64,000 bases of DNA from Gammaproteobacteria bacterium (GTDB taxonomy: Bacteria; Pseudomonadota; Gammaproteobacteria; Eutrophobiales; Eutrophobiaceae): assembly GCA_965221455.1 (NCBI GenBank), contig OZ244890.1, forward strand, positions 2,025,774-2,089,773, read 5' to 3'. The notes under the pieces were generated by a model that saw nothing but the letters and a program-made list of their open reading frames with translations, searched no databases and was not told the DNA's origin. Position numbers and translations under genes: made by a program. Shown here one piece after another: positions 6,138 through 29,427 of the stretch (positions are counted from its first letter, which is position 1; every line of letters starts with the position of its first letter).

Positions 6138-6156
6138 AGGATTAGGTTCTACCGGA

Positions 6157-6921: not shown

Positions 6922-6985
6922 TTGTTTTTAGCTTATGTTTAAAAGGTTTTAAGCATTATTAACGTTCGGCTCGTTGTCGCTACTC

Positions 6986-9193: not shown

Positions 9194-9197
9194 ATTG

Positions 9198-9692
9198 ATG
9201 GAGTTTTTAAATGCACAATCGTTACAAGTGGTTTTACTCGTTTTTCAGGTCATTGTTGCTGTGACTTTAATAGGCCTTATTCTCATTCAACACGGAAAAG
9301 GTGCGGATGCGGGTGCGGCCTTTGGCAGCGGAGCTTCCTCGACTGTATTCGGCAGTCAAGGTTCCGGTAATTTTTTAACCAGGACGACCGCTGTGTTCGC
9401 ATTTTTGTTTCTGGGTAACAGTTTACTACTTGGCTATATTGCAACAGGGCGTGTAGGAGTTCCGCCGAGCCTCATGGAAGGTCAGCCGTTGGTCGTCGAA
9501 GAGGCGCCGTCGGTGATTACCGAAGAAGTGGTCCCTACAGCAGGAACTCCGCCGAGCCTCATTGAAGTTGAGCCGTTGGTCGTCGAAGAAGTGCCGTCGG
9601 TGATTACCGAAGAAGTGGTCCCTGTAGAGAGTCCCGCTGTAGATACAATTGAATTTGATATTCCCTCAATTCCTGTAGAGCAGTCCGAGTAA
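9198..9692 (+). CDS. secG: Preprotein translocase subunit SecG with an acidic C-terminal extension of about 60 aa containing a 2 x 29-aa repeat
   Basis: LIQHGKGADAGAAFGSGASSTVFGSQGSGNFLTRTT matches the SecG core; followed by tRNA-Leu(GAG) as in E. coli secG-leuU. Confidence 0.85.
   Translation: MEFLNAQSLQVVLLVFQVIVAVTLIGLILIQHGKGADAGAAFGSGASSTVFGSQGSGNFLTRTTAVFAFLFLGNSLLLGYIATGRVGVPPSLMEGQPLVVEEAPSVITEEVVPTAGTPPSLIEVEPLVVEEVPSVITEEVVPVESPAVDTIEFDIPSIPVEQSE
9462..9626 (+). repeat. In-frame tandem direct repeat, 2 x ~87 bp, inside the secG 3' region
   Basis: ccgccgagcctcatggaaggtcagccgttggtcgtcgaagaggcgccgtcggtgattaccgaagaagtggtccct... recurs with few substitutions. It encodes PPSL(M/I)E(G/V)(Q/E)PLVVEE(A/V)PSVITEEVVP twice. 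Confidence 0.85.
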
Positions 9693-9703
9693 CCATACAT
9701 CCG

Positions 9704-9788
9704 GCCGATGTGGTGGAATTGGTAGACACGCTATCTTGAGGGGGTAGTGCTTTAGGGCGTGCCGGTTCGACTCCGGCCATCGGCACCA
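9704..9788 (+). tRNA. leuU: tRNA-Leu (anticodon GAG), CCA encoded
   Basis: Near-identical 5' half to E. coli leuU (GTGGTGGAATTGGTAGACACGCTA). Anticodon loop TTGAGGG, long variable arm, T-arm GGTTCGACTCC, acceptor GCCGATG/CATCGGC + ACCA. Confidence 0.9.
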
Positions 9789-9934
9789 TGAAAAATCAAT
9801 GGCTTACGTTGGTTTTTGTTATTTCCTGTTTTGCAGGAGAGGTGAGATGGGGGGGATGATAATTTTGTCCACGGTACCCCTCATAATTACATCCCTTGGA
9901 CAATGAGTTTTGGAAAAGCGGAGGAGAGGCCTGT

Positions 9935-10864
9935 ATGTCACACAATGTTATTCTTCTTGAAACTGCAAGAAAGCTTGCAGAGCACCATAATTTTGACGGC
10001 CCCTCATTAAGGGAGTCCATTCCTTATTTGAAGGCTTTTAGTGGGAATAACTTTGTCCTTAAGATCGGTGGTTCGGTGCTGAATGATCCATCCCACGCCC
10101 TCATCCCCAAGCTGGTGGATGATATTGTCTTTTTAAAACGACTGGACATTAATGTCATTATTGTTCACGGCGGCTCTCGCCAACTGGATGCGGAGATGAC
10201 CAGGCAAGGGATCGAAGTGAAGAAAGTCAATGGTCTGAGAATTACCGATGGCACGATTCTGGAGCTGGCTCATACAGTGTTTCGGAAAATAAGCGAGGAA
10301 ATCAAGTTAGAAGTTGACCGCAGAGGATACAACGGTGTTATTTTTGATCGTACTACAGGTCTGGTGAGTGCTAAACAAAAACATCCTGAGTTGGGATATG
10401 TGGGCGAACCGAGCGAGGTTAATTCTGAGTTACTGGGGTCGTTATCTGATAAGTCAATCCCTATCGTTTCTTCAATTACCGGAGGTGCCCTGCCGGATAG
10501 CATGGGGTTTAATGTAAATGCCGATGAGCTTGCGAGTGCCGTAGCGCAAGAAATAAAAGCTGATAAATTGATCCTGATGACGGATGTTGACGGTGTGTTG
10601 GATGCTGAGGGTAAGCTTTTGTCAACGTTAGGCATTGATGAAGTGGAGGGCTTAATCGCTGAAGGTATTATTTCCCGGGGAATGCTTCCAAAGGTGAATG
10701 CTTGTCTTGTATCGTTGAAAGCAGGAGTGAAAAAGTCACATATCATTAATGGTGATTCCTCTGACTCATTTATCAACGAGATACTTACAAATTCAGGTGT
10801 AGGCACTGAGTTTGTTTGTGCGGATGCACTCAAAAATAGAGATGGAATCTCCACAAACAGGTGA
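9935..10864 (+). CDS. argB: Acetylglutamate kinase (long-form ArgB)
   Basis: VLKIGGSVL...VIIVHGG...GLRITDG...NVNADELA...GMLPK motifs. ATG at 9935 preceded by GAGGAGAGG RBS. Confidence 0.85.
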   Translation: MSHNVILLETARKLAEHHNFDGPSLRESIPYLKAFSGNNFVLKIGGSVLNDPSHALIPKLVDDIVFLKRLDINVIIVHGGSRQLDAEMTRQGIEVKKVNGLRITDGTILELAHTVFRKISEEIKLEVDRRGYNGVIFDRTTGLVSAKQKHPELGYVGEPSEVNSELLGSLSDKSIPIVSSITGGALPDSMGFNVNADELASAVAQEIKADKLILMTDVDGVLDAEGKLLSTLGIDEVEGLIAEGIISRGMLPKVNACLVSLKAGVKKSHIINGDSSDSFINEILTNSGVGTEFVCADALKNRDGISTNR

Positions 10865-11664
10865 GAATTGACCATCTGGAGATGGAAAAAGACTCGAAAC
10901 CCTTTCAAGGGGTGGATTAACAGATATAATATCCATTCCGTAGGCAGGGCAATGTCTTTGGACGGATCTCTTGCCAGTAGACTGGATATCAGCAGAAGGA
11001 CGATGGCGGTTCAAGCCATCTAGGGACTGAATTCCCAGGGCAGCGGGCAATAGCGAAATACAAACAGTCACCTTGGAATCCGGAAATAATAAATCAAAAC
11101 TGGGTGATATCCAAAAGCATATTTTGTGATGGAAATGTTATGTCGTGTTGATTAAATAAGTTTTGCCTGTTGTAAAGTCAATAGTCGTTTCTTTTTGGAA
11201 CCACGAAACATGTGTGGTGTCCAGAACCTTAATTGATGGAGTATCAGGTTTTCTGATACCACCATGTGCTACCAGGGTCCCCGTAAATTGAATATGCCGA
11301 TGGGGAGATTTTCAATGAGATGGAGGAACTGGTACAGGTTTATTTCGTTCAGCATGCGAAAAGAATTGCAGAAATGTTAAACTTGATAAATCAACATTTG
11401 TTTGTACAGTAGGTTCAGTAAACTTATCTGAAATTTATATAAAAATAAGCATTGTTAGGTAGGCTAGGGAAACTGTTCAAAAGGTCAGAACCGGATTTAT
11501 ACGACCTGTGAACTGATTAAGTCGGCTCTCAGATAAGCGGGGAAGGGGTGGCTGGGCGGCCGTAATGCAAAACTTAAAAGTATTACTATTGCGTTGCATC
11601 GGGGTGTATTATACGAGATGTCGGCTAAACGAATAGTCCTAGATGTTTATCTGCTGACGTAGGA

Positions 11665-13678
<2,014 letters not shown>

Positions 13679-13810
13679 TGGGGATAAAATAGTAAACTAA
13701 TTTAATGATGTACCTTGAGATGGGGCGTGGTTTGTGTCGGGTATTGTTTTTGGAAATGTGCTAGCATCAAAGGGGTGTGTTTGTGTCCAAACCCCTGGGA
13801 GGAAAAGGTA

Positions 13811-14068
13811 ATGATATTTGGTGGAAAGTTTGGTGGAAAAAATTCCGGTGATTCTGCTGTATTGGAAGAACAGAACAAGATACTGCGTGAAGCACTGGAG
13901 TTTTATGCGGATAAAGTTAGTTGGGAGGGTGGAGTTAAATACACAGATGCCGCCGACGCGACCATTTTTACTGATGGTAGCGAGTCTGCTGTGAGTGTTG
14001 ATAAGGGCAGCCGTGCCTTTGTGGCACTCAAGAAAGCTGCAGCACTCGGTCAGGCTGATAAATCATAA
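13811..14068 (+). CDS. Small hypothetical protein (85 aa)
   Basis: ATG at 13811 preceded by strong RBS GGGAGGAAAAGG. MIFGGKFGGKNSGDS...; no recognised family. The ORF-track start at 13715 adds an unlikely Cys-rich leader. Confidence 0.5.
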   Translation: MIFGGKFGGKNSGDSAVLEEQNKILREALEFYADKVSWEGGVKYTDAADATIFTDGSESAVSVDKGSRAFVALKKAAALGQADKS

Positions 14069-14643
14069 AATCTCATCAATTTCTCATTTATTTCATTGTT
14101 TTTTTAGTCCGTGGCCTGTGAATCCTGAGCTAGCGGGCGTGGTCTCGATTGTAATGCCAGGAGAAACTGGCCGTTTATCATCTCTATTACTAACATTTCA
14201 ACGTTAAAGCAGATTGGATCTTAACGGAAGAATCATGGCTATCATCCGTAAAATTCCTGCCTCGGTTGTGAATTTGCGGTCTTCTCACACTCCAAATATC
14301 CTCAATCTGCGCTAGTTAGACTCGGGAGCAGAGGTTTTACCGCGTGCGTCGGTTGACGCTTTGTGTAGCCAATGCACTATACTTGCACGAGGTGTTAATT
14401 TATGAACATTCAATAAATACAAGCTGCTTCACTCAAACTTAATCAGGGATCCTTCGAATAAAATATCCTTGAAATTCAAAAAATTTCTCTAATTTCAGTG
14501 ATTGATGAGTGGCAAGATTGTATACTGCCGCTGTCGTTTGATGGGTGTGGATAACGTCGGACCAAAGCTAGCAATTGGTTGCTTGTTGGCAGGTTGTCTT
14601 ATCCGCTATTTTGAATTGGGAAGGGGGTATTTAAAGACTGCAA

Positions 14644-15012
14644 ATGTTGGAAAATTATTTCCCCATACTTGTATTCATTGCCATTGGTCTAGTGATGGGA
14701 ACGGTAATGCTCGTCATTGGGTTTGGGTTGGGTAAATTGATGGGGCATGCCCGTGCAGACAGTGCAAAGCAATCTCCCTATGAGTGTGGATTTGAGGCTT
14801 TTGAAAATGCCCGAATTAAGTTTGACGTTCGTTATTATCTCGTGGCTATCCTGTTTATCATCTTTGATCTTGAAATCGCATTTTTGTTTCCCTGGGCTGT
14901 TGTCCTTGACGAAGTAGGTATGGCAGGATTTTGGGCGATGATGATATTTTTGGGCGTGTTGGTCATTGGTTTTATTTATGAGTGGCGCAAAGGAGCTCTG
15001 GAATGGGAGTAG
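14644..15012 (+). CDS. nuoA: NADH-quinone oxidoreductase subunit A
   Basis: 3-TM small subunit, typical NuoA sequence; first gene of the nuo operon. Confidence 0.9.
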
Positions 15013-15503
15013 AACAGCAACCTGCGGAGATGGAAGCTACAGTTCACGAAAAAGGAATTGTGACGACGTCCGTGGATAATGTTGTAAATTGGGCCAGAAC
15101 AGGTTCATTGTGGCCGATGACCTTTGGTCTGGCGTGCTGTGCGGTCGAAATGATGCAGGCAGGTGCCTCTCGTTATGATATGGATCGTTTCGGTGTGATA
15201 TTCAGACCCAGTCCTCGTCAGTCTGACGTCATGATAGTGGCAGGAACACTGGTCAATAAAATGGCTCCAGCATTACGCAGAGTTTATGACCAGATGGCTG
15301 AACCGCGCTGGGTTATTTCCATGGGTTCATGTGCGAATGGCGGCGGTTATTATCATTATTCCTATGCTGTCGTTCGCGGTTGTGATCGTATCGTCCCTGT
15401 GGATGTTTATGTTCCTGGTTGTCCGCCAACAGCGGAAGCACTTCTATTTGGGATTATACAACTACAAAATAAAATCAAACGAACTAACACCATTGCCCGG
15501 TAG
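15003..15503 (+). CDS. nuoB: NADH-quinone oxidoreductase subunit B
   Basis: [15 protein letters not shown]...[10 protein letters not shown]...CPP [4Fe-4S] N2 motifs. ATG at 15003 after AAGGAG RBS, overlapping the nuoA stop. Confidence 0.9.
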
Positions 15504-15541
15504 TTTAAAGTTTGTGCACATAAGCAACTGCATAACAAAGC

Positions 15542-16261
15542 ATGAAAAATTCTAATGATACACTGATGAATCGCCTCGTGGATTCTTTGGTCGCACGCTT
15601 TGGTACAGCCATCAGGGATGCTTATGTTGCTCATGATCAGGCAGTTGTCGAGTTAAGCCCCAATCAATTGCTTTCTGTATGTCAATTGCTGAGAGATGAA
15701 TCTGAATATTCCTTTGAGCAATTAGTCGATCTTTGCGGTGTGGATTATTCAGTCTTTGGTAAGGCAGATTGGGAAACCCAAAGTACGTCAAGCACGGGTT
15801 TCAGCCGTGGTGTCAGCGAGGAAATTTTTGATGATGCCGCACAAGCAAGATCTCGTTTTGCCGTGGTTTACCATTTATTGTCGATTACAAACAATCAACG
15901 ATTACGGGTTCGTTGCATGATTGACGATACACCCGCAAAGATTGAGTCAGTGGTGGGTATTTGGGCATCAGCGAATTGGTATGAACGTGAAGCATTTGAT
16001 TTATTCGGGATTTTATTTGAAGGTCACCCTGATCTGAGAAGACTTCTGACTGATTATGGTTTTGTAGGTCATCCGTTCAGAAAAGATTTTCCGTTGCAAG
16101 GTAATGTTGAAGTTCGCTATGACGAAGAACAAAAACGTGTTATTTATCAGCCTGTTACGATAAAAAATCGTGTTTTGGTTCCCAGAGTGATTCGTCATGA
16201 TAATCGTTACGAAGATACGAGGAGCGAAGAAGTACTGGAAGAGGGACAAAAAAATGCCTGA
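15542..16261 (+). CDS. nuoC: NADH-quinone oxidoreductase subunit C (not fused to NuoD)
   Basis: NuoC/30 kDa subunit sequence, separate from nuoD. Confidence 0.9.
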
Positions 16262-17507
16262 GATTCGTAATATGACCATGAATTTTGGGCCGCAGCATCC
16301 TGCAGCGCATGGTGTCCTGCGCCTGGTGCTGGAGATGGACGGTGAAGTGATTGAAAGGGCTGATCCGCATATTGGTTTGTTACATCGAGGTACGGAGAAA
16401 TTAGCGGAATACAAACCATATAACCAGAGTATTGGTTATATGGATAGACTCGATTATGTCTCCATGATGTGTAATGAACATGCTTATGTGATGGCAATAG
16501 AAAAATTAATGGGCATCACACCTCCAATCCGTGCGCAATATATTCGCGTCATGTTTGCTGAAATTACGCGTATTTTAAATCATCTTTTGTGGCTCGGCAC
16601 ACACGCATTGGACGTTGGTGCGATGACCATGTTCCTGTATTGTTTTCGTGAACGTGAAGATCTTATGGACTGTTATGAGGCAGTATCCGGTACACGTATG
16701 CATGCAGCCTACTTGCGTCCTGGTGGTGTTTATCGGGATCTCCCGGATAACATGCCACAGTATGAGGTATCAAAATGGCATAACGAAAAAGAAGTGAAGG
16801 ACATGAACAGGGACAGACAAGGTTCCTTGCTGGATTTTATCGAGAGATTCACAGAAAAGTTTCCAGGCTGTATTGATGAATATGAAATATTACTGACGGA
16901 TAATAGAATTTGGAAACAACGTACTGTTGATATTGGAATAGTAACAGCAGAGCGTGCACTACAGCTGGGTTTTACCGGCCCTTTGTTACGAGGTTCGGGT
17001 GTCGAATGGGATCTACGTAAAAAGCAAAGCTACGAAATTTATGATCATGTCGACTTTGATATTCCGGTCGGTACCAATGGTGATTGCTATGATCGCTATC
17101 TGGTACGCATGGAGGAAATGCGTCAGTCAAATCGTATCGTCAAACAATGTATTACCTGGCTAAAACAAAATCCCGGCCCGGTCATTCTGGACGACCATAA
17201 GCTGGCTCCACCAAAACGTGGAGAAATGAAAGGCGATATGGAAGCGCTGATTCACCATTTTAAATTATTTACGGAAGGCTACTGTGTACCGGAAGGTGAA
17301 ACGTATACCGCAGTCGAACATCCGAAAGGTGAGTTTGGTATTTATTTGATTTCCGATGGTGCCAACAAACCCTACAGGCTGAAAATCCGCGCTCCCGGAT
17401 TTGCACATTTATCTGCAATGGATGAAATGGTCAGAGGCCATATGCTGTCAGATGTAGTGGCGATTATTGGAACGCAAGATATTGTGTTCGGAGAGATTGA
17501 TCGATAA
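16254..17507 (+). CDS. nuoD: NADH-quinone oxidoreductase subunit D
   Basis: [23 protein letters not shown]...HRGTEKL 49-kDa subunit signature. ATG at 16254 overlaps the nuoC stop. Confidence 0.9.
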
Positions 17508-18005
17508 ATGGCTGCGTCAGCTAAAGATTTGCTTTCTTCCCATGCTCGCGAAGAGATTGATCGCTGGATTTTGAAGTACCCTGCGGATCAGAAACAGTCT
17601 GCGGTATTGGCGGCATGTCGTGAAGTACAGCATGAGAACCAGGGCTATTTGACCACGGCGCTAATGGATGCAATAGCGGAATATCTTGAGATGCCTGCAA
17701 TTGCCGTGTACGAAGTTGCTTCATTTTACTCAATGCTGGAAACAGAAAAGGTGGGACGCAACAGCATTTCCGTGTGCACCAATGTTTCGTGTATGTTGAA
17801 CGGCTCAGATGAAATCGTGAGGCATATAGAGAAAAAATTGGGTATTAAAGAGGGCGAGTCCACTGAAGATGGTCGTTGTCACCTGAAACAAGAGGAAGAA
17901 TGCCTCGCCGCTTGTTGCGGTGCGCCGATGATGATGGTGAATCATGTTTACCATGAGCATTTAACCCCTGAAAAGGTCGATAAAATCCTGGATAAACTGG
18001 ACTAA
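17508..18005 (+). CDS. nuoE: NADH-quinone oxidoreductase subunit E
   Basis: 24-kDa subunit with CxxxxC...CxxxC [2Fe-2S] motif ([10 protein letters not shown]...CLAACCGAP). Confidence 0.9.
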
Positions 18006-18010
18006 CACGG

Positions 18011-19306
18011 ATGCTAAAGTTGGATCAGGTTTGTTACGCAACGCGTCAGTTTGATGAGCCATGGACGTTTGAAAATTATAAAAAAGTGGGAGGTTATGAA
18101 GCCTGGTTAAAAGTGGTCCGTGAGCGGATCCCGCCCGAAGATATTATTGAAATCATCAAAGCATCCGGATTACGTGGACGTGGCGGGGCTGGTTTTCCAA
18201 CCGGACTGAAATGGAGTTTCATGCCAAAAAATATCGACGGTCCAAAATATGTTGTATGCAACTCGGACGAAAGCGAGCCTGGCACCTGTAAGGATCGAGA
18301 TATTCTACGCTTCAATCCCCATTCTCTGGTGGAAGGATTAGCCATTGCATGTTACGCCATGGGCACCAAAGTGGCGTACAACTATATGCGCGGTGAGTTT
18401 ATGGATGAGCCCTGCCAAAGATTCGAAACCGCGTTACAGGAAGCATATGAGCAAGGGTATTTGGGTCGTAATATCAGGGGCACAGATGTTGAAGTGAATA
18501 TTTATGGAACTTTGGGCGCAGGTGCCTATATTTGCGGTGAAGAGACCGCCTTACTGGAATCATTGGAAGGTAAAAAAGGCCAGCCACGTTTTAAACCGCC
18601 GTTTCCAGCCAACTTTGGATTGTATGGTAAGCCGACGACAATCAACAATACAGAATCTTTTGCCTCGGTTCCCTCCATTATCAGAAATGGTGCCGACTGG
18701 TTCGCTGCAATGGGCGTAGCCAACAGTGGTGGCAGTAAATGTTTTTCAGTCAGCGGCCACGTGAATAAGCCGGGCAATTTTGAAGTGCCCTTGGGAATGT
18801 CCTTTGCGGAATTACTTGAGCTTGCCGGTGGCGTACGTAATGGCAATAAGCTAAAGGCCGTGATCCCCGGGGGATCATCGGTGCCGGTCATGCACGGAAA
18901 AGACATGATGGAAGTCAATATGGATTATGAATCTATTCAGAAAGCCGGATCGTATCTTGGTTCCGGTGCTGTGATCGTGATGGATGAAACGACTTGCATG
19001 GTGCGGGTGCTTGAGCGTATCTCACGATTTTATTACTCGGAATCCTGTGGTCAATGCACGCCGTGCCGTGAAGGAACCGGCTGGTTGTATCGCGTGATTA
19101 AACGCATTGAGAACGGACAAGGCGAGCAAGAAGATTTGGATAAATTGATTGATGTCGCGAACAAGATCGAGGGCAGAACTATTTGCGCCCTGGGCGATGC
19201 GGCAGCCTGGCCGGTGCAAAGTTTTGTAAAAAGATTCCGTGACGAATTTCAATATCACATAGATCATAAATCCTGTTTGGTGGCGGTGAAGAAGGATGCG
19301 GCTTAG
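18011..19306 (+). CDS. nuoF: NADH-quinone oxidoreductase subunit F
   Basis: [20 protein letters not shown] site and [12 protein letters not shown] [4Fe-4S] motif. Confidence 0.9.
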
Positions 19307-19333
19307 TAAGGTATCAGGAAGGCGATTGCGGAG

Positions 19334-20224
19334 ATGAGTTCATTTGAATTCATAGTTGACCAAATAAAGAACAGCGACGCATGTGATTATGCGGCAGATC
19401 ATTACGAAGCAAAATATCCAAATGAAGACCTGGCTGAGAAGATATTAGAACGTGGATCGGCTGATTTTGATCAGAAATATGATCCTGATGATGAAAAGGA
19501 AAAAACCTGTTACAGAAGTGACTTCTATGTGCGGTGTAATCTAAAAATGCATTTTTCTCAGGCTAGGCGTGCGTTATCTGAATGCTTTAAAGATGCTTTG
19601 CCACAGCCACTTTTGTTTGTTGATTTCGGTTGCGGTCCCATGACTGCGGGGTTAAGTCTGGCTTCTATCTTGCCCGAGCAGACAAATGATACAGACATCG
19701 ACAAGTACGATATCGCCAAGATGATGGAGCAGAAGAAAGCGTACAAAAAGGAAACAAGTTATATCGGAATTGATGCGTCAGAGAATATGTTGCGGATAGC
19801 CGAAAACATTAATAGAGAACATGGCTTGTTCGATCAGTTTGAACTTAAACAGGGAAAACAGCTGGATGTGTTGTCAGATATTTCCTGTACTTCTTCTATG
19901 GGAGCACGTACTGCCGTGTTGATGCTGTCATTTGTACTGGCACCAAAAACGCTTAAGGGTGAGCAAAGTATGGAGGACCTGGCAAATCATTGGACAGTAT
20001 TTGTGCAGAAGTCAGAATGCGACGAGACGTATATCATTTATCTTAACCCGGCGATTTACCCGACACACAAACTCCATAAAAACTACCGGGTATTTGAATA
20101 TATACTTCAAAGCAGTTCCAATGATTTTGAATACAGAAATTTCGGCCTGAAGGAAATTGTGATGAAGAATAAGAATAGTCGTGATTTTGCACTCGGGTTA
20201 ATAAGAGGACAACGGCAACAATGA
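19334..20224 (+). CDS. Class I SAM-dependent methyltransferase-like protein inserted between nuoF and nuoG
   Basis: Motif I LFVDFGCGPMTAGLSLA, post-I acidic YIGIDASENML and motif-IV-like TAVLMLSFVL. 296 aa. ATGA overlap with the downstream gene. Confidence 0.6.
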   Translation: MSSFEFIVDQIKNSDACDYAADHYEAKYPNEDLAEKILERGSADFDQKYDPDDEKEKTCYRSDFYVRCNLKMHFSQARRALSECFKDALPQPLLFVDFGCGPMTAGLSLASILPEQTNDTDIDKYDIAKMMEQKKAYKKETSYIGIDASENMLRIAENINREHGLFDQFELKQGKQLDVLSDISCTSSMGARTAVLMLSFVLAPKTLKGEQSMEDLANHWTVFVQKSECDETYIIYLNPAIYPTHKLHKNYRVFEYILQSSSNDFEYRNFGLKEIVMKNKNSRDFALGLIRGQRQQ

Positions 20225-20886
20225 TGGATACCTCGGTACAACAACCCGATCTTTTCTCCGGGATCGCTGACGTAAGGCACGAATATCAACGCCTGAATGT
20301 ATCTCCGCAACAGCAGGAGCTTTTATGCCGGGGCGGTGCTGAATATATTCCTGATTTTATTACCGATGAAGAAGAGCGCATATTATTATCCGCGATAGAT
20401 CAGGAATCGTGGAATGATGATCTACGGCGACGAGTACAGCATTACGGTTATCGTTATGACTACAGCAAGCGTACTGTCAATGCTGAACAGCGGCTGGGTG
20501 AGTTACCGGACTGGGCACATCGTTTTGCCGAGCGTCTTGTAGAGCAAAGTATATTTACAACTCCGCCAAGCCAGTTAATTGTCAATGAATATCAGCCGGG
20601 GCAGGGGATTGCGCCACACAGTGATCGTGATGGTTTCGGTCCGGTGGTGGCGTCGTTGTCTTTGGCGAGTGATTGCATGATGAAGATTATCCCTGATCGC
20701 AAAGACAGACAAACTGCTTTTGAGATCGTATTACAGCGTCGCAGTCTGCTGGTGCTAAAGGGCGATAGCCGTTATGTCTGGCAACATGGAATTGAACCGA
20801 AGCGTAACGACCGGCAGAATCATCATGTGTTCCCACGTAATCGGCGAGTATCCTTAACTTTTCGTACCGTTAATGATTCGTCATGA
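20221..20886 (+). CDS. AlkB-family 2-oxoglutarate/Fe(II)-dependent oxygenase, ALKBH8-like
   Basis: LIVNEYQPGQGIAPHSDRD (HxD), VASLSLAS, QRRSLLVLKGDSRYVWQHGI (second His), RRVSLTFRTV (2OG-binding Arg pair). Very similar in motif order and spacing to the ALKBH8 oxygenase domain. ATGA overlaps with both neighbours. Confidence 0.75.
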   Translation: MMDTSVQQPDLFSGIADVRHEYQRLNVSPQQQELLCRGGAEYIPDFITDEEERILLSAIDQESWNDDLRRRVQHYGYRYDYSKRTVNAEQRLGELPDWAHRFAERLVEQSIFTTPPSQLIVNEYQPGQGIAPHSDRDGFGPVVASLSLASDCMMKIIPDRKDRQTAFEIVLQRRSLLVLKGDSRYVWQHGIEPKRNDRQNHHVFPRNRRVSLTFRTVNDSS

Positions 20887-23273
20887 CCGACAAAACATTG
20901 CAAATAGAAGTTGATGGTACACAATTACCGGCAAGCCCGGGGCAGACGCTGATTGAGGTGACTGATGCCAATGATATTTATATTCCGAGGTTTTGTTATC
21001 ACAAAAAGTTAACGGTCGCGGCAAACTGTCGCATGTGTCTGGTCGAGGTGGAGAAGGCACCGAAACCCTTACCTGCATGCTCCACGCCGGTGATGGAGGG
21101 AATGAAAGTTTTTACTCGATCAAAACTTGCCATTGAAGCCCAAAAATCCGTGATGGAATTTCTGTTGATTAATCACCCTCTGGATTGTCCGATATGTGAT
21201 CAAGGGGGAGAATGTGAGTTGCAGGATCTTGCTATGGGTTATGGCGAAGGTGTTTCGCGTTATCAGGAAAGCAAACGTGTTATTCAGGACAAAAATATTG
21301 GTCCATTAATTCAGACTGATATGACGCGCTGTATTCACTGCACACGTTGTATTCGATTTGGCGAAGAAATCGCTGGCCTGCGCGAAATGGGCGCTACTGG
21401 ACGAGGCGAGCGTATGGAGATTGGTACTTATATTGAAAAAAGCGTGTCTTCCGAATTATCAGGCAATATTATTGATGTCTGTCCGGTGGGTGCATTGACC
21501 TCCAAACCTTTCAGATATTCCGCACGGGCATGGGAAATGATTCAGCGAGAAAGTATTGCACCACATGACTCTGTGGGTTCGAATGTACAACTTCATGTCA
21601 AGGGTGATCGTGTTATGCGCGTTGTTCCCGCAGAAAACGAGGCGATTAACGAAGTGTGGATATCAGACCGTGATCGATTCAGCTATGAGGGTATGTACAG
21701 CGAAGATCGCTTACAGACACCCATGATAAAAATCAACGGTGATTGGCAGGAAACAGATTGGGAAACCGCGCTTGAGTTGGTACGTGACAAGCTGGGTAAT
21801 ATATTATCAAATCACGGTGGTGAACAATTAGGTGGCCTGGCATCACCTGCATCGACACTGGAAGAACTGTATTTATTTCAAAAATTATTGCGCGGGATTG
21901 GATGTAATAATATAGATTCGCGACTGCGGCAAAATGATTTCAGACAGCAAGAGTCAGATCCTGTTTTTCCTTATCTGGGACAGTCGATCTCTGCGCTGGA
22001 AGATCTTGACGCAGTATTAGTCATTGGCAGCAACGTCAGAAAAGAGCAACCGATGATTAACCACCGATTGCGTAAAGCCTCCCTAAAGGGTGCAGACGTG
22101 ATGATGATTAATTCTATTGATTACGTTTTTAATTATGATCTTTCTGCAAAAATAATCACATCCCCCGCAGAAATAACAACAGCACTTGGCGGCATCCTCA
22201 AGGCTCTTTTCGAGTTTGAGGAGAATGTTGCTGATACCTCTATTCAACCACTAGTGGAAAATGTGGTCGTGAGTGACGAACATCGGGTTATCGCGAAAAA
22301 ATTATCCGCTGCTGAAGATGGTTCGGTGCTTCTGGGTAACCTTGCGACTGCGCATCATGAGTATTCAACATTAAAATATCTGGCTCTCGCTATTGCTAAA
22401 CTGGGTAATTTAAAATTTGGTTTCCTCAGTGAAGCGGCAAATACCAGCGGTGCGCATCTGACAGGCGTGTTGCCGCACAGAGGCGTGGGAGGGGAATCTG
22501 TTGATACTGCCGGACTGACGCTGGCGGCAATGTTGGAAAAGCCTTTGCAAGCTTATCTGCTCTTGGGGATTGAACCGGAGCTTGATTGCTGGGATGGACA
22601 TAAAGCACGTCAGGCTTTGCAGGCTGCCGAGTTCGTCGTTTTGATGACGGCTTATCAGTCGGAAGCCATGAAACAATATGCGGATGTGCTTTTACCTATT
22701 GCACTTTTCGCGGAAATGTCCGGCACCTTTATTAATGTTGAAGGACTATCACAAAGTTTTGCTGAGGCGGTACCGCCGGTGGGCGAGGCGCGACCGAGCT
22801 GGAAAATACTCCGTGTATTGGGAAACTTATTGAATAATACTGAAGCATTTGAATATAACAACCTGGAAGAAGTCAGAAAAGAAATAACCGGTATCATCGC
22901 AGGTACTACCTTGAATAGCGTCGGTAGCTGGACAGTATCCGATACGTCAAACAGTGGTTTGTCTCGAAATGGTTTACTGCAAAGAATTACAGAGGTCCCT
23001 ATGTTTGCTATCGATGCGATGATCAGAAGGGCGAATGCATTACAAAAATCGTGTGGCAACAAAGATTCGATCCATATTAATCAGGAACTTGCCGATAAGC
23101 TGGATGTGTCTGACGGTGATATTGTGATTGCAGGGCAAGAAGAAAAATCCGTCAATGCGCCTGTCAAGATTAGTAAAGATATTTCTGCTGACTGCGTGTT
23201 GATACAAGCGGCGCAACCAATTCATTCTGAATTAGGCCCATGGCATGGATATGTCAGCTTGAGGAAAGCATGA
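20883..23273 (+). CDS. nuoG: NADH-quinone oxidoreductase subunit G
   Basis: N-terminal 2Fe-2S and 4Fe-4S Cys clusters ([14 protein letters not shown]; [14 protein letters not shown]; [10 protein letters not shown]); 796 aa. Confidence 0.9.
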
Positions 23274-23275
23274 GT

Positions 23276-24397
23276 ATGATGGAATGGATCCGAACCAACC
23301 TTATTACTCCTTTGGTAGAACAATTGTTTCCGGTATCAATACATGCACATGTTGTGTTAACGATTGAAACTGTATTGAAGATTGCAGTAATAATTACACC
23401 AGTAATGCTTACAGTTGCGTATTTAACTTATTTTGAACGCAAGGTGATTGGATATATTCAGGGGCGAATCGGGCCAAACCGAGTGGGCGTATTCGGTTAT
23501 CATCTGTGGGGACTGGCACAACCGTTTGCGGATGCTCTTAAATTAATTTTTAAAGAGATAATTATTCCAACAGGCTCGAATAAAACATTGTTTGTGATTG
23601 CGCCGGTTTTGTCATTGGCACCTTCTCTGGCTGCTTGGGCGGTAATACCGTTTGAAGATACTCTGGTTTTGGCCGATATCAATGCCGGATTACTTTACAT
23701 ATTAGCGCTGACATCACTTGCTGTGTATGGCGTGATTGTTGCGGGTTGGGCATCTAACTCAAAATATGCCTTTCTGGGTACCATGCGTTCCGTCGCGCAA
23801 ATAGTGTCATATGAAATTGCTATGGGTTTCGCCCTGGTCGGTGTGTTATTGGCTGCAGGCAGTTTGAATCTGGGCGATATTGTGGATGCGCAGAGAGGTA
23901 GCTTCATTCACTGGTTTTGGTTACCTTTGTTACCGCTGGCGGTCGTTTATTTTATTTCAGGTGTCGCCGAGACCAATCGCGCACCTTTTGATGTTGCGGA
24001 AGGCGAGTCGGAAATCGTCGCGGGTTTTCATGTGGAATACGGCGGTATGGCCTTTTCAGTTTTTTTCATGGCTGAATATGCCAATATGATTATTATTGCA
24101 ATTCTGACAGCGGTCCTGTTTTTTGGAGGTTGGTTGTCACCTTTACAGGGAATATTACCGGAAGCTGTTTTCAGAGTGCCTGTTATCGGCACTTTACTTG
24201 GCGAGGGTATTCACTGGTTACTGATTAAAACTTCATTCTTCCTGTTTATGTTTTTGTGGCTTCGTGCAACTTTCCCACGCTATCGTTATGACCAGATCAT
24301 GCGTCTGGGCTGGAAAGTATTTATTCCGATTACTATTGTCTGGTTAATCGTTGTATCCGTCATGGCCGTAGTGGATATGCCGCTCTGGTTTGATTAG
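23276..24397 (+). CDS. nuoH: NADH-quinone oxidoreductase subunit H
   Basis: [13 protein letters not shown]...SNSKYAFLG...AETNRAPFD signature. Start at ATG 23270 or 23276 after GAGGAAAG RBS, overlapping the nuoG stop. Confidence 0.9.
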
Positions 24398-24403
24398 GTA
24401 TAG

Positions 24404-24895
24404 ATGATGAAAAAAATAGCGCGGTATATAAAAAGTTTATTTCTCCTTGAGCTAATCAGGGGATTGCGGTTGACCGGGCGTCATTTGTTCAGAAAAAAAG
24501 TAACGGTGCAATATCCGGAGGAAAAAACACCACAGTCACAAAGGTTTCGCGGACTTCATGCCTTGCGCCGTTATCCCAATGGAGAGGAACGTTGTATCGC
24601 CTGCAAATTATGTGAAGCGGTATGTCCGGCAGTTGCAATCACTATCGAATCTGAATTACGCGAAGACAATAGTCGTCGTACGACAGTTTATGACATCGAC
24701 TTGTCAAAGTGTATTTACTGTGGCTTCTGTGAAGAAGCCTGCCCGGTGGATGCCGTTGTTGAAACGCGTATCTTTGAATATCACGGTGAGCAACGTAAAG
24801 ATTTATTAATGACCAAAGAAATGTTGCTTGAAGTGGGCAAACAAGAAGAAGAACGGATTGCAAATGATCGGGCAGAGGAAGCACCATACAGATGA
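24404..24895 (+). CDS. nuoI: NADH-quinone oxidoreductase subunit I
   Basis: Two CxxCxxCxxxCP ferredoxin motifs ([12 protein letters not shown]; [12 protein letters not shown]). Confidence 0.9.
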
Positions 24896-25566
24896 TCGAG
24901 CAAACAATCTTTTACATATTTTCTGCTTTGTTGCTGACATCATCTGGACTGCTGATCACTGTGCGTAATCCAGTGTTTGCGGCGTTGTTTTTGATCCTTG
25001 CGTTTTTCTCAAGTTCTGCGGTTTGGATACTACTTGAAGCAGAGTTTCTGGCGATTACATTAGTACTGGTCTATGTAGGTGCGGTCATGGTCTTATTTAT
25101 GTTCGTTGTCATGATGCTGGATATTAATCTGTCAGCTTTACGCGAGGGTTTTGCACGGTATTTACCTATCGGGATCACAGTCGCAATTTTGATGGCCTTA
25201 TCCATGGTACTGGTAATTAATGCTGGGGAGTTCAATTTGGCAAGCGATGTTGTTCAACGTCGTGGTGCTGATTACAGTAATATCAGGGAGTTGGGTGAAA
25301 TCCTGTATACCTCTTACTTGTATCCCTTTGAAATTGCAGGCGCTATTTTATTGGTTGCTATTATTGCTGCGATTTCACTCACTATACGCACTCCACGTTC
25401 CAGTAAAGCACAAAATCCAGGCCATCAGGTAACTGTTAAAAGTACAGATAGATTACGAATTGTCAAAATGCAGGACAAAGAGGTAGTTGGGGATACTGAT
25501 GAACATTTGCAAGAAGAAGCACATGACGATTCAGAAGAACCGACTTTTGTAAAGGACTCCTCATGA
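24892..25566 (+). CDS. nuoJ: NADH-quinone oxidoreductase subunit J
   Basis: Membrane subunit, NuoJ-like TM pattern; start overlaps the nuoI stop. Confidence 0.85.
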
Positions 25567-25868
25567 TTACCTTGTCTAAGGTTCTGATTCTTGCCGCGTT
25601 ACTTTTCTGTATCAGTGTGGCTGGAATATTTTTGAATCGAAAAAACATTTTAATCATATTGATGTGCATCGAATTGATGCTGTTATCAGTGAATATGAAT
25701 TTCATTGCCTTTTCGTATTTTTTGCACGATATCAATGGTCAGATATTTGTGTTTTTCATATTAACTGTGGCCGCAGCGGAGGCGGCGATAGGTTTAGCCA
25801 TTCTTGTTGTCCTGTTTCGTAACAGGAACACCATTGATGTTGATGACTTGAAGAGCATGGAGGGTTAG
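25563..25868 (+). CDS. nuoK: NADH-quinone oxidoreductase subunit K
   Basis: 101-aa 3-TM subunit; start overlaps the nuoJ stop. Confidence 0.9.
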
Positions 25869-25873
25869 CCACG

Positions 25874-27883
25874 TTGAATTTGTTTGACCGACTGTTTATG
25901 GACGGAGGGAAAGATATCTATCTCGCTATCGTATTAGCGCCTCTGCTTGGTTCAGTCATTGCAGGATTATTTGGAAAATTAATCGGTCGTGCCGGGGCAC
26001 ATTGGATAACAATCATCGGCGTTGGGATCTCTTCCATTCTTTCCATGCTGGCCTATTATCATCTTTTTTATAACGCTGGAGGAATCTATAACGAGACTAT
26101 TTATACCTGGCTCAACAGTGGCAATCTGCATTTTGAAATTGGTTTTTTGATCGATAAATTATCTGTCACCATGATGGTGGTGGTTACCTTTGTTTCATGG
26201 ATGATCCATATTTATACCATCGGTTATATGCATGACGATCCAGGTTATCAACGATTTTTCAGTTACATCTCATTATTCACCTTTTCCATGTTGATGCTGG
26301 TGATGTCGAATAATTTCATGCAGTTATTCTTCGCCTGGGAAGCCGTCGGACTAGTGTCATATCTATTGATTGGTTTTTGGTTTACACGTGAAAGCGCAAT
26401 CTTCGCAAATCTGAAAGCATTCCTGGTAAATCGTGTCGGCGATTTTGGTTTCCTCCTGGGTATTGCCGCCATACTGATGCATTTTCAGTCAATGGACTAT
26501 ATTGAAGTGTTTGAGCAAGCACCTGTTTTAGCTTCTGCGACCGTTATTATATGGGGTGATGAATCATGGTCACTGATGTCGGTAATTTGCATCTGTTTAT
26601 TTATTGGTGCGATGGGTAAATCCGCGCAAGTTCCTTTACATGTTTGGTTACCCGATTCCATGGAAGGCCCAACGCCGATTTCAGCCTTGATTCATGCAGC
26701 GACCATGGTCACCGCAGGTATCTTTATGGTATCTCGCATGTCGCCACTTTATGAGTTATCTGAAACGGCGTTGAATTTTATCTTGATAATCGGTGCCACT
26801 ACCGCATTTTTTATGGGGCTGTTGGGTCTGGTCCAAAACGATATCAAACGTGTGATTGCCTATTCAACCTTGTCACAATTGGGTTATATGACTGTCGCGC
26901 TTGGTGCCTCTGCCTATGCCGCAGCGATGTTTCATCTGGTTACGCACGCTTTTTTTAAGGCTTTATTATTTCTTGCAGCCGGGGCAGTCATTATCGCCAT
27001 GCATCATGAGCAGGATATGCGCAAGATGGGAGGTCTTTATAAGTATCTCCCCATTACATGGGTTACCTGTCTGGTAGGATCGATCGCATTGATTGGTTTC
27101 CCTGGAACCTCCGGTTTCTTTTCCAAGGATGCCATTATAGAGGCAGTGCATCTATCGACTTTACCGGCCGCAGGTTATGCCTACTACGCTGTTTTATCAG
27201 GAGTCTTTATCACTGCATTATATAGCTTCCGATTATTTTTCATGACCTTTCACGGAAAGGAAAGGATGGATAAACATACTTGGGAACAATTGCATGAATG
27301 TCCGGCCGTTGTGACTGTCCCGCTTGTTATGTTGGCGATCCCATCGCTGATTTTGGGGGCGTGGTTGCTTGGGCCGATCCTGTTTGGAGATTACTTTGGT
27401 GATGCAATTCAGGTTGCTGAAAGCCATAATGTTTTATTTGAAATGGGACATCACTATCATGGTAAGTGGTATGAAATCGCATGGCAATTTTTTGTGCATG
27501 GCATTCGACATCCCATAGTCATAATTCTTGCGCTTTCGGGTGTGTTTACAGCGTGGTTGTTGTATATCAAATTTCCACACATGCCGGCAAAGATTGCGAA
27601 AACTCTGGGTATCATCTATCGCTTGTTGTTGAATAAGTATGGCTTTGATGATTTTTACCAAAAAGTTTTTGCTGGAGGTGCAAAAGAAATAGGCCGACTA
27701 CTTTGGCAAATAGGTGACGTCAGATTCATTGATGGATTTATTGTCAATGGTTCAGCATCGTCGGTCAGGAAATTCTCAGGCGTCATTAGACAAATACAGT
27801 CAGGCTATTTATACCATTATGCGTTTGCCATGATTATAGGTTTGTTACTGTTGCTTGGCGTGTTCGTGCATAAATTAATTTAG
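25874..27883 (+). CDS. nuoL: NADH-quinone oxidoreductase subunit L
   Basis: Antiporter-like subunit with long C-terminal amphipathic helix. Start could be TTG 25874 (GGAGGG RBS) or ATG 25898. Confidence 0.85.
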   Translation: MNLFDRLFMDGGKDIYLAIVLAPLLGSVIAGLFGKLIGRAGAHWITIIGVGISSILSMLAYYHLFYNAGGIYNETIYTWLNSGNLHFEIGFLIDKLSVTMMVVVTFVSWMIHIYTIGYMHDDPGYQRFFSYISLFTFSMLMLVMSNNFMQLFFAWEAVGLVSYLLIGFWFTRESAIFANLKAFLVNRVGDFGFLLGIAAILMHFQSMDYIEVFEQAPVLASATVIIWGDESWSLMSVICICLFIGAMGKSAQVPLHVWLPDSMEGPTPISALIHAATMVTAGIFMVSRMSPLYELSETALNFILIIGATTAFFMGLLGLVQNDIKRVIAYSTLSQLGYMTVALGASAYAAAMFHLVTHAFFKALLFLAAGAVIIAMHHEQDMRKMGGLYKYLPITWVTCLVGSIALIGFPGTSGFFSKDAIIEAVHLSTLPAAGYAYYAVLSGVFITALYSFRLFFMTFHGKERMDKHTWEQLHECPAVVTVPLVMLAIPSLILGAWLLGPILFGDYFGDAIQVAESHNVLFEMGHHYHGKWYEIAWQFFVHGIRHPIVIILALSGVFTAWLLYIKFPHMPAKIAKTLGIIYRLLLNKYGFDDFYQKVFAGGAKEIGRLLWQIGDVRFIDGFIVNGSASSVRKFSGVIRQIQSGYLYHYAFAMIIGLLLLLGVFVHKLI

Positions 27884-27904
27884 TCATAAATGAAAAATTA
27901 AAAA

Positions 27905-29425
27905 ATGTCAGCGAATATACCAATATTGAGTTTGTTGATCTGGGGGCCGATCATCGGAGGCGTACTGGTACTGTATGCAGGAGACAGACAGGAAAATACT
28001 ACCAAGATAGTAGCCTTGATGATTGCAGTACTGACATTTTTGTTATCCACCTTGCTGTACAAAAATTTTGATTTCAATACGCATGAAATGCAGTTTGTTG
28101 AGTTCGCGTACTGGATAGAATCTTTTAACATCAACTATCATCTTGGCGTTGATGGTATTGCCATGCCGTTGATCATACTCACTACTTTTATAACAGTGTT
28201 GGTGATTCTGGCGGCATGGGAAGTTATAAACAAAAGAATTTCCCAGTACCTCGCGGCTTTTTTAATTATGGAAGGTCTGATGAATGGAGTCTTCTCTTCG
28301 CTGGATGTTATGTTGTTTTATGTGTATTGGGAGGCGATGTTAATTCCGATGTTTTTAATTATCGGGATATGGGGTGGACCGAATCGCGTTTATGCGACGA
28401 TTAAATTTTTCCTGTATACCTTCTTTGGTTCAGTTTTCATGTTAGTGGCTTTTCTCTATCTATATTCTCGGTCAGGTAGTTTTAACATCCTGGAGTTGCA
28501 TAATTTGCCACTGGATTTAGATGCGCAGAAATTACTCTTTATCGCTTTTTTCCTGGCTTTTGCCGTGAAAATACCCATGTGGCCAGTGCATACATGGCTG
28601 CCAGATGCTCATGTTGAAGCACCCACTGGAGGCTCAGTGATACTGGCTGCGATTATGTTGAAACTTGGCGGATATGGTTTTCTTCGATTCAGTTTACCGA
28701 TTACTCCTGGTGCCAGTGCGTATTTTGACTGTGCAATGATTATCCTGTCGTTGATTGCTATTGTTTATATTGGTTTTGTCGCCCTGGTACAGCAGGATAT
28801 GAAAAAGCTGATTGCTTATTCGTCAATATCACATATGGGATTCGTTACTCTGGGTTTTTTTATCGGCTTTACTATTGTAGAGACAACGGGTTCTGCAGAA
28901 GCTGCAGTATTTGGGCTGGAAGGCGCGATGATCCAAATGATTTCCCACGGTTTTATTTCCGGCGCTTTATTTCTTTGTGTTGGGATTATGTATGACAGGG
29001 TTCATAGCCGCCAAATTAGTGACTACGGCGGCGTGGTTAATACCATGCCGCATTTTGCCGCATTTATGATGTTATTCGCTATGGCTAATTCAGGTTTGCC
29101 GGGAACGTCAGGTTTTGTCGGTGAGTTTGTTGTTATCCTGAGTGCGTATCAGGCTGACTTCTGGATAGCATTTCTGGCAGCATTAACATTAATACTCGGC
29201 GCGGCTTATACATTAGGGATGTACAAAAGAGTTATTTTCGGTGATGTATCTAATGATAATGTAGCAAAACTAAAAGATGTTAATTCGCGTGAAACATTTA
29301 TCCTGTCGATACTTGGTATTGCTGTATTAGTGTTTGGGCTTTATCCGGCTCCCTTATTTGATGTAATGCATCCGACGATGGAACATTTATTTGAGCACGT
29401 GATGCAGTCGAAGGAAGGAACCTGA
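27905..29425 (+). CDS. nuoM: NADH-quinone oxidoreductase subunit M
   Basis: Antiporter-like subunit; WLPDAHVEAPT motif. Confidence 0.9.
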   Translation: MSANIPILSLLIWGPIIGGVLVLYAGDRQENTTKIVALMIAVLTFLLSTLLYKNFDFNTHEMQFVEFAYWIESFNINYHLGVDGIAMPLIILTTFITVLVILAAWEVINKRISQYLAAFLIMEGLMNGVFSSLDVMLFYVYWEAMLIPMFLIIGIWGGPNRVYATIKFFLYTFFGSVFMLVAFLYLYSRSGSFNILELHNLPLDLDAQKLLFIAFFLAFAVKIPMWPVHTWLPDAHVEAPTGGSVILAAIMLKLGGYGFLRFSLPITPGASAYFDCAMIILSLIAIVYIGFVALVQQDMKKLIAYSSISHMGFVTLGFFIGFTIVETTGSAEAAVFGLEGAMIQMISHGFISGALFLCVGIMYDRVHSRQISDYGGVVNTMPHFAAFMMLFAMANSGLPGTSGFVGEFVVILSAYQADFWIAFLAALTLILGAAYTLGMYKRVIFGDVSNDNVAKLKDVNSRETFILSILGIAVLVFGLYPAPLFDVMHPTMEHLFEHVMQSKEGT

Positions 29426-29427
29426 AT

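Follow-up and report, generated by a model that had tools for sequence, protein, structure and literature searches.

What brings a predicted methyltransferase gene and an AlkB-family dioxygenase gene into the middle of the operon for respiratory complex I? The question is raised by a 64,000-nucleotide (nt) stretch of DNA from Gammaproteobacteria bacterium (assembly GCA_965221455.1, contig OZ244890.1, positions 2,025,774 to 2,089,773 of the forward strand), hereafter the window, in which two extra genes, called X and the AlkB gene here, stand between nuoF and nuoG. A first-pass annotation of the sequence had seen in them an unfused counterpart of eukaryotic ALKBH8, possibly acting on the tRNA wobble position and co-regulated with complex I. 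The answer towards which we lean, albeit slightly, is that X and AlkB form a module whose enzymes act consecutively on a nucleic acid, and that the nuo operon carries this module as a passenger. The evidence comes from the coupling of the two genes, from the conserved features of their products, from their repeated association in other bacteria and from the boundaries of the insertion.

Two coupled genes between nuoF and nuoG

The pair, the signals around it and the host genes are located as follows, in window coordinates.

19280-20882, + strand: inserted segment of 1603 bp, lineage-specific and holding only X and the AlkB gene
19316-19322, + strand: Shine-Dalgarno-like AGGAAGG, 11 nt upstream of the start codon of X, read from the sequence
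19334-20224, + strand: gene X, 296 amino acids (aa), putative class I S-adenosylmethionine (SAM)-dependent methyltransferase of a small uncharacterised family
20221-20224, + strand: ATGA overlap of the X stop and AlkB start codons, consistent with translational coupling
20221-20886, + strand: AlkB gene, 221 aa, single domain, predicted Fe(II)/2-oxoglutarate dioxygenase of the ALKBH8/ALKBH6 clade and of the bacterial "group 2A" type
20883-20886, + strand: ATGA overlap of the AlkB stop and nuoG start codons, read from the sequence
18011-19306, + strand: nuoF (NCBIfam TIGR01959, E 1.6e-195)
20883-23273, + strand: nuoG (NCBIfam TIGR01973, E 9e-199), at whose start codon homology to relatives restarts
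14644-30864, + strand: host operon nuoA-N, a complete set, assigned by Pfam for nuoA-G and by order of the open reading frames (ORFs) for the remainder
29428-30864, + strand: nuoN, named from ORF order alone

The presence of two extra, intact genes between nuoF and nuoG, each joined to the following gene by an ATGA overlap, had been claimed in the first-pass annotation, and all the coordinates agree exactly with it. Both X and AlkB are judged to be real genes and not chance ORFs, because the AlkB product scores highly on PF13532 and has many homologues, and because X belongs to a family of homologues of its own. A consensus scan counted 30 promoter-like sites within the nuo operon against 38 expected, which is no excess, and the same type of scan found no strong terminator in the insert. 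Given the ATGA overlaps, the ribosome-binding site before X and this lack of a promoter or terminator excess in the operon, co-transcription and translational coupling of the pair with the nuo genes would be the straightforward reading, and the earlier proposal of co-transcription with the complex I genes is compatible with it. An Rfam scan of the whole window returned a tRNA-Leu only and no RNA element tied to the insert.

In the host operon, each gene from nuoA to nuoG was assigned unambiguously by Pfam, and the series of ORFs is collinear with the Pfam-supported nuoA-M genes of two relatives (loci L050 and L052). As these two loci stop at the start of nuoM, the collinearity comparison covers nuoA-M.

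A predicted ALKBH8-like dioxygenase

The product of the second gene was recognised by PF13532 (2OG-FeII_Oxy_2) with 98.4 bits against a gathering cut-off of 31.2 (E 8e-28), and more than 6000 homologues were found. Its best solved relative by sequence was the oxygenase domain of human ALKBH8 (3thp, E 5e-26; 38.5% identity over 156 aligned columns), while the E-values were 1.5e-15 for ALKBH6 and 3e-4 for E. coli AlkB. These comparisons place the protein in the ALKBH8/ALKBH6 clade, nearer to ALKBH8 than to the repair AlkBs (E. coli AlkB, ALKBH2/3). An AlphaFold model built with 39 homologues in the alignment reached a predicted local distance difference test score (pLDDT) of 89, and a double-stranded beta-helix fold and an N-terminal nucleotide-recognition lid, two hallmarks of the family, were both found. 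The functional residues are the following.

20425-20463, + strand: nucleotide-recognition lid R69-RRVQHYGYRYDY-81, matching RRVKHFGYEFHY of ALKBH8 in the 3thp alignment
20617-20625, + strand: iron ligands H133-S-D135, invariant among homologues
20785-20787, + strand: third iron ligand H189 (in WQHGI), invariant among homologues
20845-20865, + strand: 2-oxoglutarate-binding R209-x5-R215 (RVSLTFR), invariant among homologues

Invariance of the catalytic residues was judged over 39-41 homologues. The lid, RRRVQHYGYRYDY at residues 69-81, carries the ALKBH8-type motif RRVxHxGYxFxY where it aligns to the human sequence, and its residues R70, R71, V72, Q73, Y75, G76, Y79 and Y81 were invariant in 39 homologues. 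The AlkB-family motifs listed in the first-pass annotation (HxD, second His and RxxxxxR), as well as the ALKBH8-like strings VASLSLAS, RRSLLV..GDSRY.W.HGI and R.S.TFR, are all present, and the profile and PDB searches agreed with it on both the AlkB family and the closeness to ALKBH8.

Bacterial ALKBH8-like AlkBs have already been described as group 2A (van den Born 2009, PMC2790896), and the window protein corresponds to this group. It shares with the proteins described there and in PMC4051686 a single domain of ~190-235 aa, the ALKBH8-type lid and a sporadic distribution, often on plasmids. It differs in being translationally coupled to a methyltransferase within nuo, whereas no dedicated methyltransferase partner is mentioned in excerpts of the two papers.

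One alternative explanation is plain repair of alkylation damage, in which AlkB would remove methyl or etheno lesions from DNA or RNA and X would be accessory or unrelated. Some bacterial ALKBH8-like proteins, that of Rhizobium etli being an example, repair etheno adducts in single-stranded DNA in vitro and in vivo (PMC2790896, PMC4051686), and the NCBIfam AlkB models do match the window protein weakly. The NCBIfam score is, however, far under the cut-off (39.6 versus 267), and the "canonical" bacterial ALKBH8s had low or negligible repair activity (PMC4051686). The near-obligate pairing with one methyltransferase family, described below, would moreover have no role in pure repair. We regard this explanation as quite unlikely.

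X, a putative methyltransferase outside the Trm9 family

X gave sub-threshold methyltransferase matches only in Pfam (E ~2e-3), the best being Methyltransf_25 at 19.2 bits against a cut-off of 27. That all the Pfam methyltransferase models stayed below their gathering scores is attributed to a family too divergent for existing models. Two motifs are nevertheless present in the sequence.

19616-19651, + strand: SAM-binding loop (motif I), F95-V-D97-F-G99-C-G101-P-M-T-A-G106, invariant among the 12 close homologues
19760-19774, + strand: post-I motif Y143-I-G145-I-D147, of which Y143, G145 and D147 are invariant or at least 97% conserved

LFVDFGCGPMTxG (motif I) and YxGIDxS occur without variation in the 12 close homologues, and the SAM-motif residues are 86-100% conserved across 158 representatives of the family. 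D147 is the acidic residue that ends strand 2 (residues 141-147 in the model), where class I methyltransferases bind the ribose of SAM. The AlphaFold model of X (pLDDT 85, predicted template modelling score 0.87) has a seven-stranded Rossmann topology, and a Foldseek comparison of this model with the PDB gave 638 matches at E<=1e-3; all 50 of the matches listed were methyltransferases, none of them prominent. Based on the conserved SAM motifs, the modelled Rossmann topology and these fold matches, X is clearly predicted to be a class I SAM-dependent methyltransferase. The first-pass annotation had reached the same assignment from a GCG motif I and an acidic motif II, which correspond to the D97-F-G-C-G101 and D147 seen here. 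With the SAM motifs of X and the HxD..H, RxxxxxR and lid of AlkB all conserved, both enzymes look catalytically competent.

The nearest folds were ribosome-bound METTL17/Rsm22, methyltransferase-fold assembly factors of the mitochondrial small ribosomal subunit, from which X differs in showing 9-15% identity. A sequence-level lead to Rsm22 was set aside: the Pfam match lay below threshold, came from one of 12 family members only and was not reproducible across the family, so that Rsm22 was retained as a structural resemblance alone. METTL17 carries an Fe-S cluster; a comparable cluster would be unlikely in X, since the protein has a single invariant cysteine, C100.

Pfam, NCBIfam and PDB searches found no specific similarity of X to Trm9, the ALKBH8 methyltransferase domain, CmoM or Methyltransf_11. 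For want of this affinity X is regarded as analogous, and not orthologous, to the methyltransferase half of ALKBH8. The eukaryotic protein consists of an RNA recognition motif (RRM), the AlkB oxygenase, a zinc finger and a Trm9-like methyltransferase, and makes 5-methoxycarbonylmethyluridine (mcm5U) and its (S)-hydroxylated derivative (S)-mchm5U at the tRNA wobble position. The window pair resembles it in combining a SAM methyltransferase with an AlkB-type oxygenase and in the lid motif and catalytic residues of the latter, but is made of two polypeptides, has no RRM or zinc finger, and includes a methyltransferase with no Trm9 homology beyond the class I fold.

This parallel architecture, the 38.5% identity to the human oxygenase domain with its common lid motif, and the Dus and Trm112p-like genes found near the pair in three sponge-symbiont loci could together be taken to indicate an unfused bacterial equivalent of ALKBH8. 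Such an equivalent would perform Trm9-type methyl esterification and then wobble-uridine hydroxylation, and would be functionally tied to complex I. The missing Trm9, CmoM and Methyltransf_11 similarity of X speaks against it, as does the genomic evidence, the insert being missing from the closest relatives and no other locus of the pair lying in nuo. Furthermore, the three sponge-symbiont loci are syntenic and do not count as independent evidence. To our knowledge, bacteria generally lack the 5-carboxymethyluridine (cm5U) precursor made by Elongator, and the precursor pathway of mcm5U would be unexpected in them. Lastly, an A. tumefaciens mutant without its ALKBH8-like gene showed unchanged tRNA-Gly(UCC) (Zdzalik 2014, PMC4051686), which argues against the wobble mcm5U reading proposed at first; the same authors concluded that the physiological substrate of the bacterial ALKBH8s remains to be found. 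Since no Trm9- or Methyltransf_11-type match to X could be obtained, we do not retain the first-pass description of the pair as an unfused ALKBH8, and consider a Trm9-type wobble pathway tied to complex I very unlikely.

Conserved pairing of X and AlkB across bacteria

The X family is rare. A word-index search of 5.8 billion proteins returned 12 clusters (best E 1e-46), and an exhaustive search of 1.84 billion proteins returned 457 representative clusters at 50% identity, 48 of them at E<=1e-30. Loci encoding X were collected through exact-protein look-ups and from GTDB species representatives, JGI metagenomes and PLSDB plasmids, and pairing was counted over those non-redundant X-family loci whose downstream sequence ran to at least 700 nt. 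In 35 of these 36 loci an ALKBH8-like AlkB gene lay directly downstream of X on the same strand. The spacing between the two genes was -4 to ~+70 nt in most loci and larger in a few (L015, where X is interrupted, L017 and L018), and the pairing persisted at an X identity as low as 22-25%.

The pair recurs in many bacteria unrelated to one another and was found in marine, soil and freshwater metagenomes, in sponge symbionts, on cyanobacterial plasmids and in Poribacteria. Its named sponge-associated hosts are Ca. Poriferihabitaceae, Arenicellales, Thioalkalivibrio sp. HK1 and Poribacteria, and further named hosts are Pseudohongiella, Psychrobacter, Calothrix and Synechococcus/Picosynechococcus PCC 7002 and 7003. 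On this distribution X-AlkB is a strongly conserved two-gene module that appears to be horizontally mobile. Within the core subfamily, to which the copies of the window and the sponge symbionts belong, it is a bare pair amid housekeeping genes.

AlkB genes of this type also occur alone. The two closest homologues of the window AlkB (59% identity) are without X, one being solitary (L020) and the other lying by HsdR and an N6/N4 DNA methylase (L057), and the AlkBs on Streptomyces p3211-1 and R. denitrificans pTB4, the latter 46% identical to the window AlkB and among the proteins studied in PMC4051686, have no X either.

Several individual loci deserve description. In L057 (894-6681) AlkB stands downstream of a type I restriction HsdR gene, a 251-aa N6/N4 DNA methylase and a 203-aa protein, another association of a methylase with an AlkB. 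On pTB4 (L049, NC_008389, 520-1570) AlkB follows an ORF of 153 aa, unrelated to X and without a Pfam match, whose end lies 1 nt ahead of the AlkB start; this ORF may be an alternative partner of AlkB. The remainder of this 5.8-kb plasmid encodes RepA and a BrnT/BrnA toxin-antitoxin pair. In a metagenome-assembled genome of Pseudohongiella (L015:10369-12150) X is seemingly split by ~1.8 kb of 67% GC sequence with no Ns and no Pfam match, and AlkB is intact downstream. In the sponge symbionts L001-L003 (~5550-11550) a Dus gene lies upstream of the pair, and Aminotran_4, fatty-acid hydroxylase-family and Trm112p-family genes lie downstream, the last of these two genes beyond the pair; the inserted segment of the window holds no Trm112p-family gene. 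The Trm112p, Dus and KTI12-like neighbours were examined as clues to a tRNA pathway and set aside as leads only, because Trm112p and Dus occur in three syntenic loci and the KTI12 match is secondary to one with AAA_33.

Contexts of distant family members

Distant members of the family occur in more elaborate settings. Six metagenomic loci (L025, L026, L031, L033, L038 and L040) share a four-gene operon, at 2299-7394 in L025, which encodes in order a superfamily 1 (SF1)/UvrD-like helicase (~380 aa), a SAP + 2CompART ADP-ribosyltransferase (~600 aa), a long version of X (X-long, ~500 aa) and AlkB. The N-terminal ~250 aa of X-long have no Pfam match, and the operon as a whole looks like an undescribed conflict system. 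At L031:5701-6834 two ALKBH8-like AlkB genes are convergent, straight after X-long.

A second setting is found on cyanobacterial plasmids. Synechococcus PCC 7002 has two plasmid copies of the pair, on pAQ6 (L047, NC_010480) and pAQ5 (L048, NC_010479), and PCC 7003 has one (L056, NZ_CP016476). The PCC 7002 copies bear the locus tags RS14875/RS14870 on pAQ6 and SYNPCC7002_RS14625/RS14630 on pAQ5. The order in both strains is an AAA_33/KTI12-like kinase with WYL and WCX domains, X and AlkB, and the neighbours include Cmr4/RAMP CRISPR genes, a reverse transcriptase, an Abi protein and a restriction endonuclease; in PCC 7003 the X-family gene lies downstream of the cmr4/RAMP genes. Pnkp-Hen1 is a two-gene RNA repair operon, and the pair resembles it as a small mobile operon that joins an RNA methyltransferase to a repair or modifying enzyme, the cyanobacterial version adding the P-loop kinase (AAA_33/KTI12-like) with its WYL domain. 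It differs in having no ligase or phosphatase, in an X that is not Hen1-like and in the distinct chemistry of AlkB.

X is also found as a domain of larger proteins. A fusion of an Upf1/MkoA-like helicase with X precedes AlkB in L044, and in other members of the family the fusion partner is a Dna2-like nuclease-helicase or an AlaX-type tRNA_SAD+DHHA1 module. In addition, the PADLOC model C3a159 ("methyl transferase") describes the same family, matching the pAQ5 protein at E 7e-125, X-long at E 2e-19 and the X of the window at E 1.7e-8. This candidate model was the sole PADLOC match of the window pair; by its name it probably denotes a gene cluster linked to type III CRISPR. The model holds no functional information, and the window copy differs from it in having no CRISPR or defence neighbours.

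Overall, these distant contexts suggest that the substrate is a nucleic acid and that the family has repeatedly been put to use in conflict or repair systems. An explanation in which X and AlkB process a small molecule or a protein, methylating and hydroxylating it, is difficult to reconcile with the fusions of X to helicases and to an AlaX-type module; the ALKBH8-type nucleotide-recognition lid is invariant, and no biosynthetic genes are consistently adjacent to the pair. We hold chemistry of this kind to be very unlikely.

The same contexts bear on a further explanation, a writer-eraser conflict module of the toxin-antidote or defence type. In such a module X would methylate invader or host nucleic acid harmfully, for instance with marks of the 1-methyladenine (m1A) or 3-methylcytosine (m3C) type, AlkB would remove the mark, and the copy in nuo would be an addictive passenger. 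The distribution of the genes shows the dependence that a toxin should have on its antidote, X not being found without AlkB while AlkB also occurs alone. Defence-like settings surround the distant members, namely the SF1 helicase and SAP/2CompART operon and the kinase/WYL cassettes with Cmr/RAMP, reverse transcriptase, Abi and restriction genes, to which may be added the helicase-X fusion, a type III restriction-modification methylase upstream, the match to C3a159 and the HsdR and N6/N4 DNA methylase adjoining the closest solo AlkB. On the other hand, AlkB falls in the hydroxylating ALKBH8/ALKBH6 clade and not in the demethylating AlkB/ALKBH2/3 clade, the core subfamily is a bare pair in housekeeping contexts with no other defence genes, and no phage homologues of the pair were found. 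A writer-eraser function seems to us unlikely on the whole, but is the main alternative to the reading that we prefer.

Origin of the insertion in the nuo operon

The nearest NuoF homologues are 88-91% identical to that of the window, and five loci encoding them were retrieved: L050, from a 2.31-Mb genome, L051, and the metagenome contigs L052-L054. In four of the five (L050, L052, L053 and L054), whose NuoF is 88-89% identical to that of the window, nuoF is followed directly by nuoG, through an ATGA overlap in L050, as at the start of nuoG in the window, and through a 20-nt spacer in L052; the contig of L051 breaks off 375 nt into the ORF after nuoF. The presence of the insertion in related nuo operons was thus not borne out, the four nearest-relative loci having no pair between nuoF and nuoG, and the pair does not behave as a conserved subunit of complex I.

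The boundaries of the insertion are sharp. Nucleotide identity between the window and L050/L052 is 76-81%; homology in blastn ends at 19279 and restarts at the ATG of nuoG at 20883. The last ~9 codons of the window nuoF, from 19280, differ from those of the relatives and mark the left edge of the insert. The NuoF C-termini read ...HKSC|LVAVKKDAA* in the window, ...HKSC|MPGTGCNQKNEKTEAA* in L052 and ...NKCC|MPGTV* in L050. The precise in-frame junctions and the host-matching codon usage argue against an assembly artefact or chimera.

As to how the segment arrived, a search around the insert for target-site duplications and direct or terminal inverted repeats gave only short matches at chance level, so there is no mobile-element signature. 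In third-position GC content and codon usage neither gene departs from the range of the nuo genes, a result that is uninformative on the donor; since the composition is indistinguishable from that of the nuo genes, the insert would be either old or derived from a donor of similar composition. A phage origin of the pair was rejected, as searches of PHROGs and phage genomes gave no matches.

No nuo genes were found near the pair in any of the ~40 other loci. The position in nuo is consequently read as a single lineage-specific insertion and not as a link to respiration, and the functional co-regulation with complex I suggested in the first-pass annotation is unsupported; co-expression with complex I is best explained as hitch-hiking on the operon. 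Passenger status of the pair would follow from the relatives without the insert, from the ~40 other pair loci outside nuo and from the widely varying contexts in which the pair is found.

Proposed mechanism

Based on these findings we propose that X and AlkB would be made together and would act in succession on one and the same nucleotide, the target being a nucleic acid and probably a structured RNA, for instance tRNA or rRNA. X would install a methyl or alkyl group, which the dioxygenase would then oxidise. The mark would thereby either be removed or become a stable hydroxylated hypermodification of the sort that ALKBH8 produces from mcm5U. A two-enzyme module of this kind is suggested by the coupling of the genes, their near-obligate co-occurrence, the conserved catalytic residues, the ALKBH8-type lid and the fusions with helicase and tRNA-related domains. 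A nucleic acid is the expected substrate because AlkB is closest to the RNA-acting ALKBH8, because of the fusions of X, and because the nearest folds of X are METTL17/Rsm22. In the window, a 1.6-kb copy would have landed precisely between nuoF and nuoG, replacing the nuoF tail and the spacer and recreating the ATGA coupling to nuoG. The pair would now be a passenger, transcribed and translated together with the complex I genes but mechanistically unconnected with respiration. Of these elements, the intact genes, their folds, the conserved catalytic residues, the recurrent pairing, the limits of the insertion and its absence from relatives are shown here; the nucleic-acid substrate, the successive action on one site and the passenger status are inferred.

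Two observations weigh against this proposal. Firstly, X essentially never occurs without AlkB, whereas close homologues of AlkB often occur without X, which is the opposite of the Trm9/ALKBH8 pattern. This asymmetry fits models in which the product of X needs processing, and suits a writer-eraser or toxin-antidote function, or an order in which hydroxylation comes first and O-methylation second, at least as well as consecutive methylation and oxidation. Secondly, the ATGA coupling to nuoG and the host-like composition are signs of long residence in the operon, and it is therefore conceivable that expressing the pair along with complex I brings some advantage on which selection acts.

Significance

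In the literature searched we found no description of a methyltransferase partner for an ALKBH8-like bacterial AlkB, nor of the X-AlkB pairing. What is new is a split methyltransferase-AlkB module with a methyltransferase that is not of the Trm9 type; the oxygenase group is known, and the X family had been catalogued only as an anonymous candidate model.

It is conceivable, although we put this forward tentatively and with some doubt, that X-AlkB represents an undescribed two-step pathway of nucleic-acid modification, widespread but sporadic, in which a new family of methyltransferases methylates and a group 2A AlkB then oxidises, and that its repeated appearance in helicase/ADP-ribosyltransferase operons and in cassettes adjacent to type III CRISPR genes reflects the use of reversible or hydroxylated RNA methylation as a weapon or repair step in phage-host conflict. 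If true, the pathway would supply a handle on the physiological substrate of the bacterial ALKBH8 homologues, proteins known since 2009, as a coupled methyltransferase partner narrows the search: the methylation target of X would be the likely substrate or product of AlkB. The helicase/ADP-ribosyltransferase and type III CRISPR links also suggest a part for methylation-oxidation chemistry in phage-host conflict. Synechococcus sp. PCC 7002 is naturally transformable, and its two plasmid copies make the question directly testable in a cultured strain. The location in nuo is not evidence for a link between RNA modification and respiration. It offers a clean case of a foreign cassette captured in an essential operon with translational coupling preserved, and the pair itself is the interesting part.

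Other features of the window

Elsewhere in the operon, the longest nuoD ORF has 436 aa and shares 65 nt (16197-16261) with the end of nuoC, whereas NuoD has 417 aa in the relatives; the true start of nuoD is probably further downstream than that of the longest ORF. Upstream of the operon, the interval from tRNA-Leu(GAG) to nuoA (9704-14643) holds an amino-acid kinase gene, thiC and a 117-aa ORF. The same tRNA-adjacent interval of the relatives has a Pkinase/ABC1 gene instead, and L050 has a phage integrase and an HTH_17 gene in addition, so that this stretch is variable within the lineage. Two large ORFs on the reverse strand were also recorded, one of 563 aa at 33661-35352 with no Pfam match and one of 1254 aa at 43197-46961.

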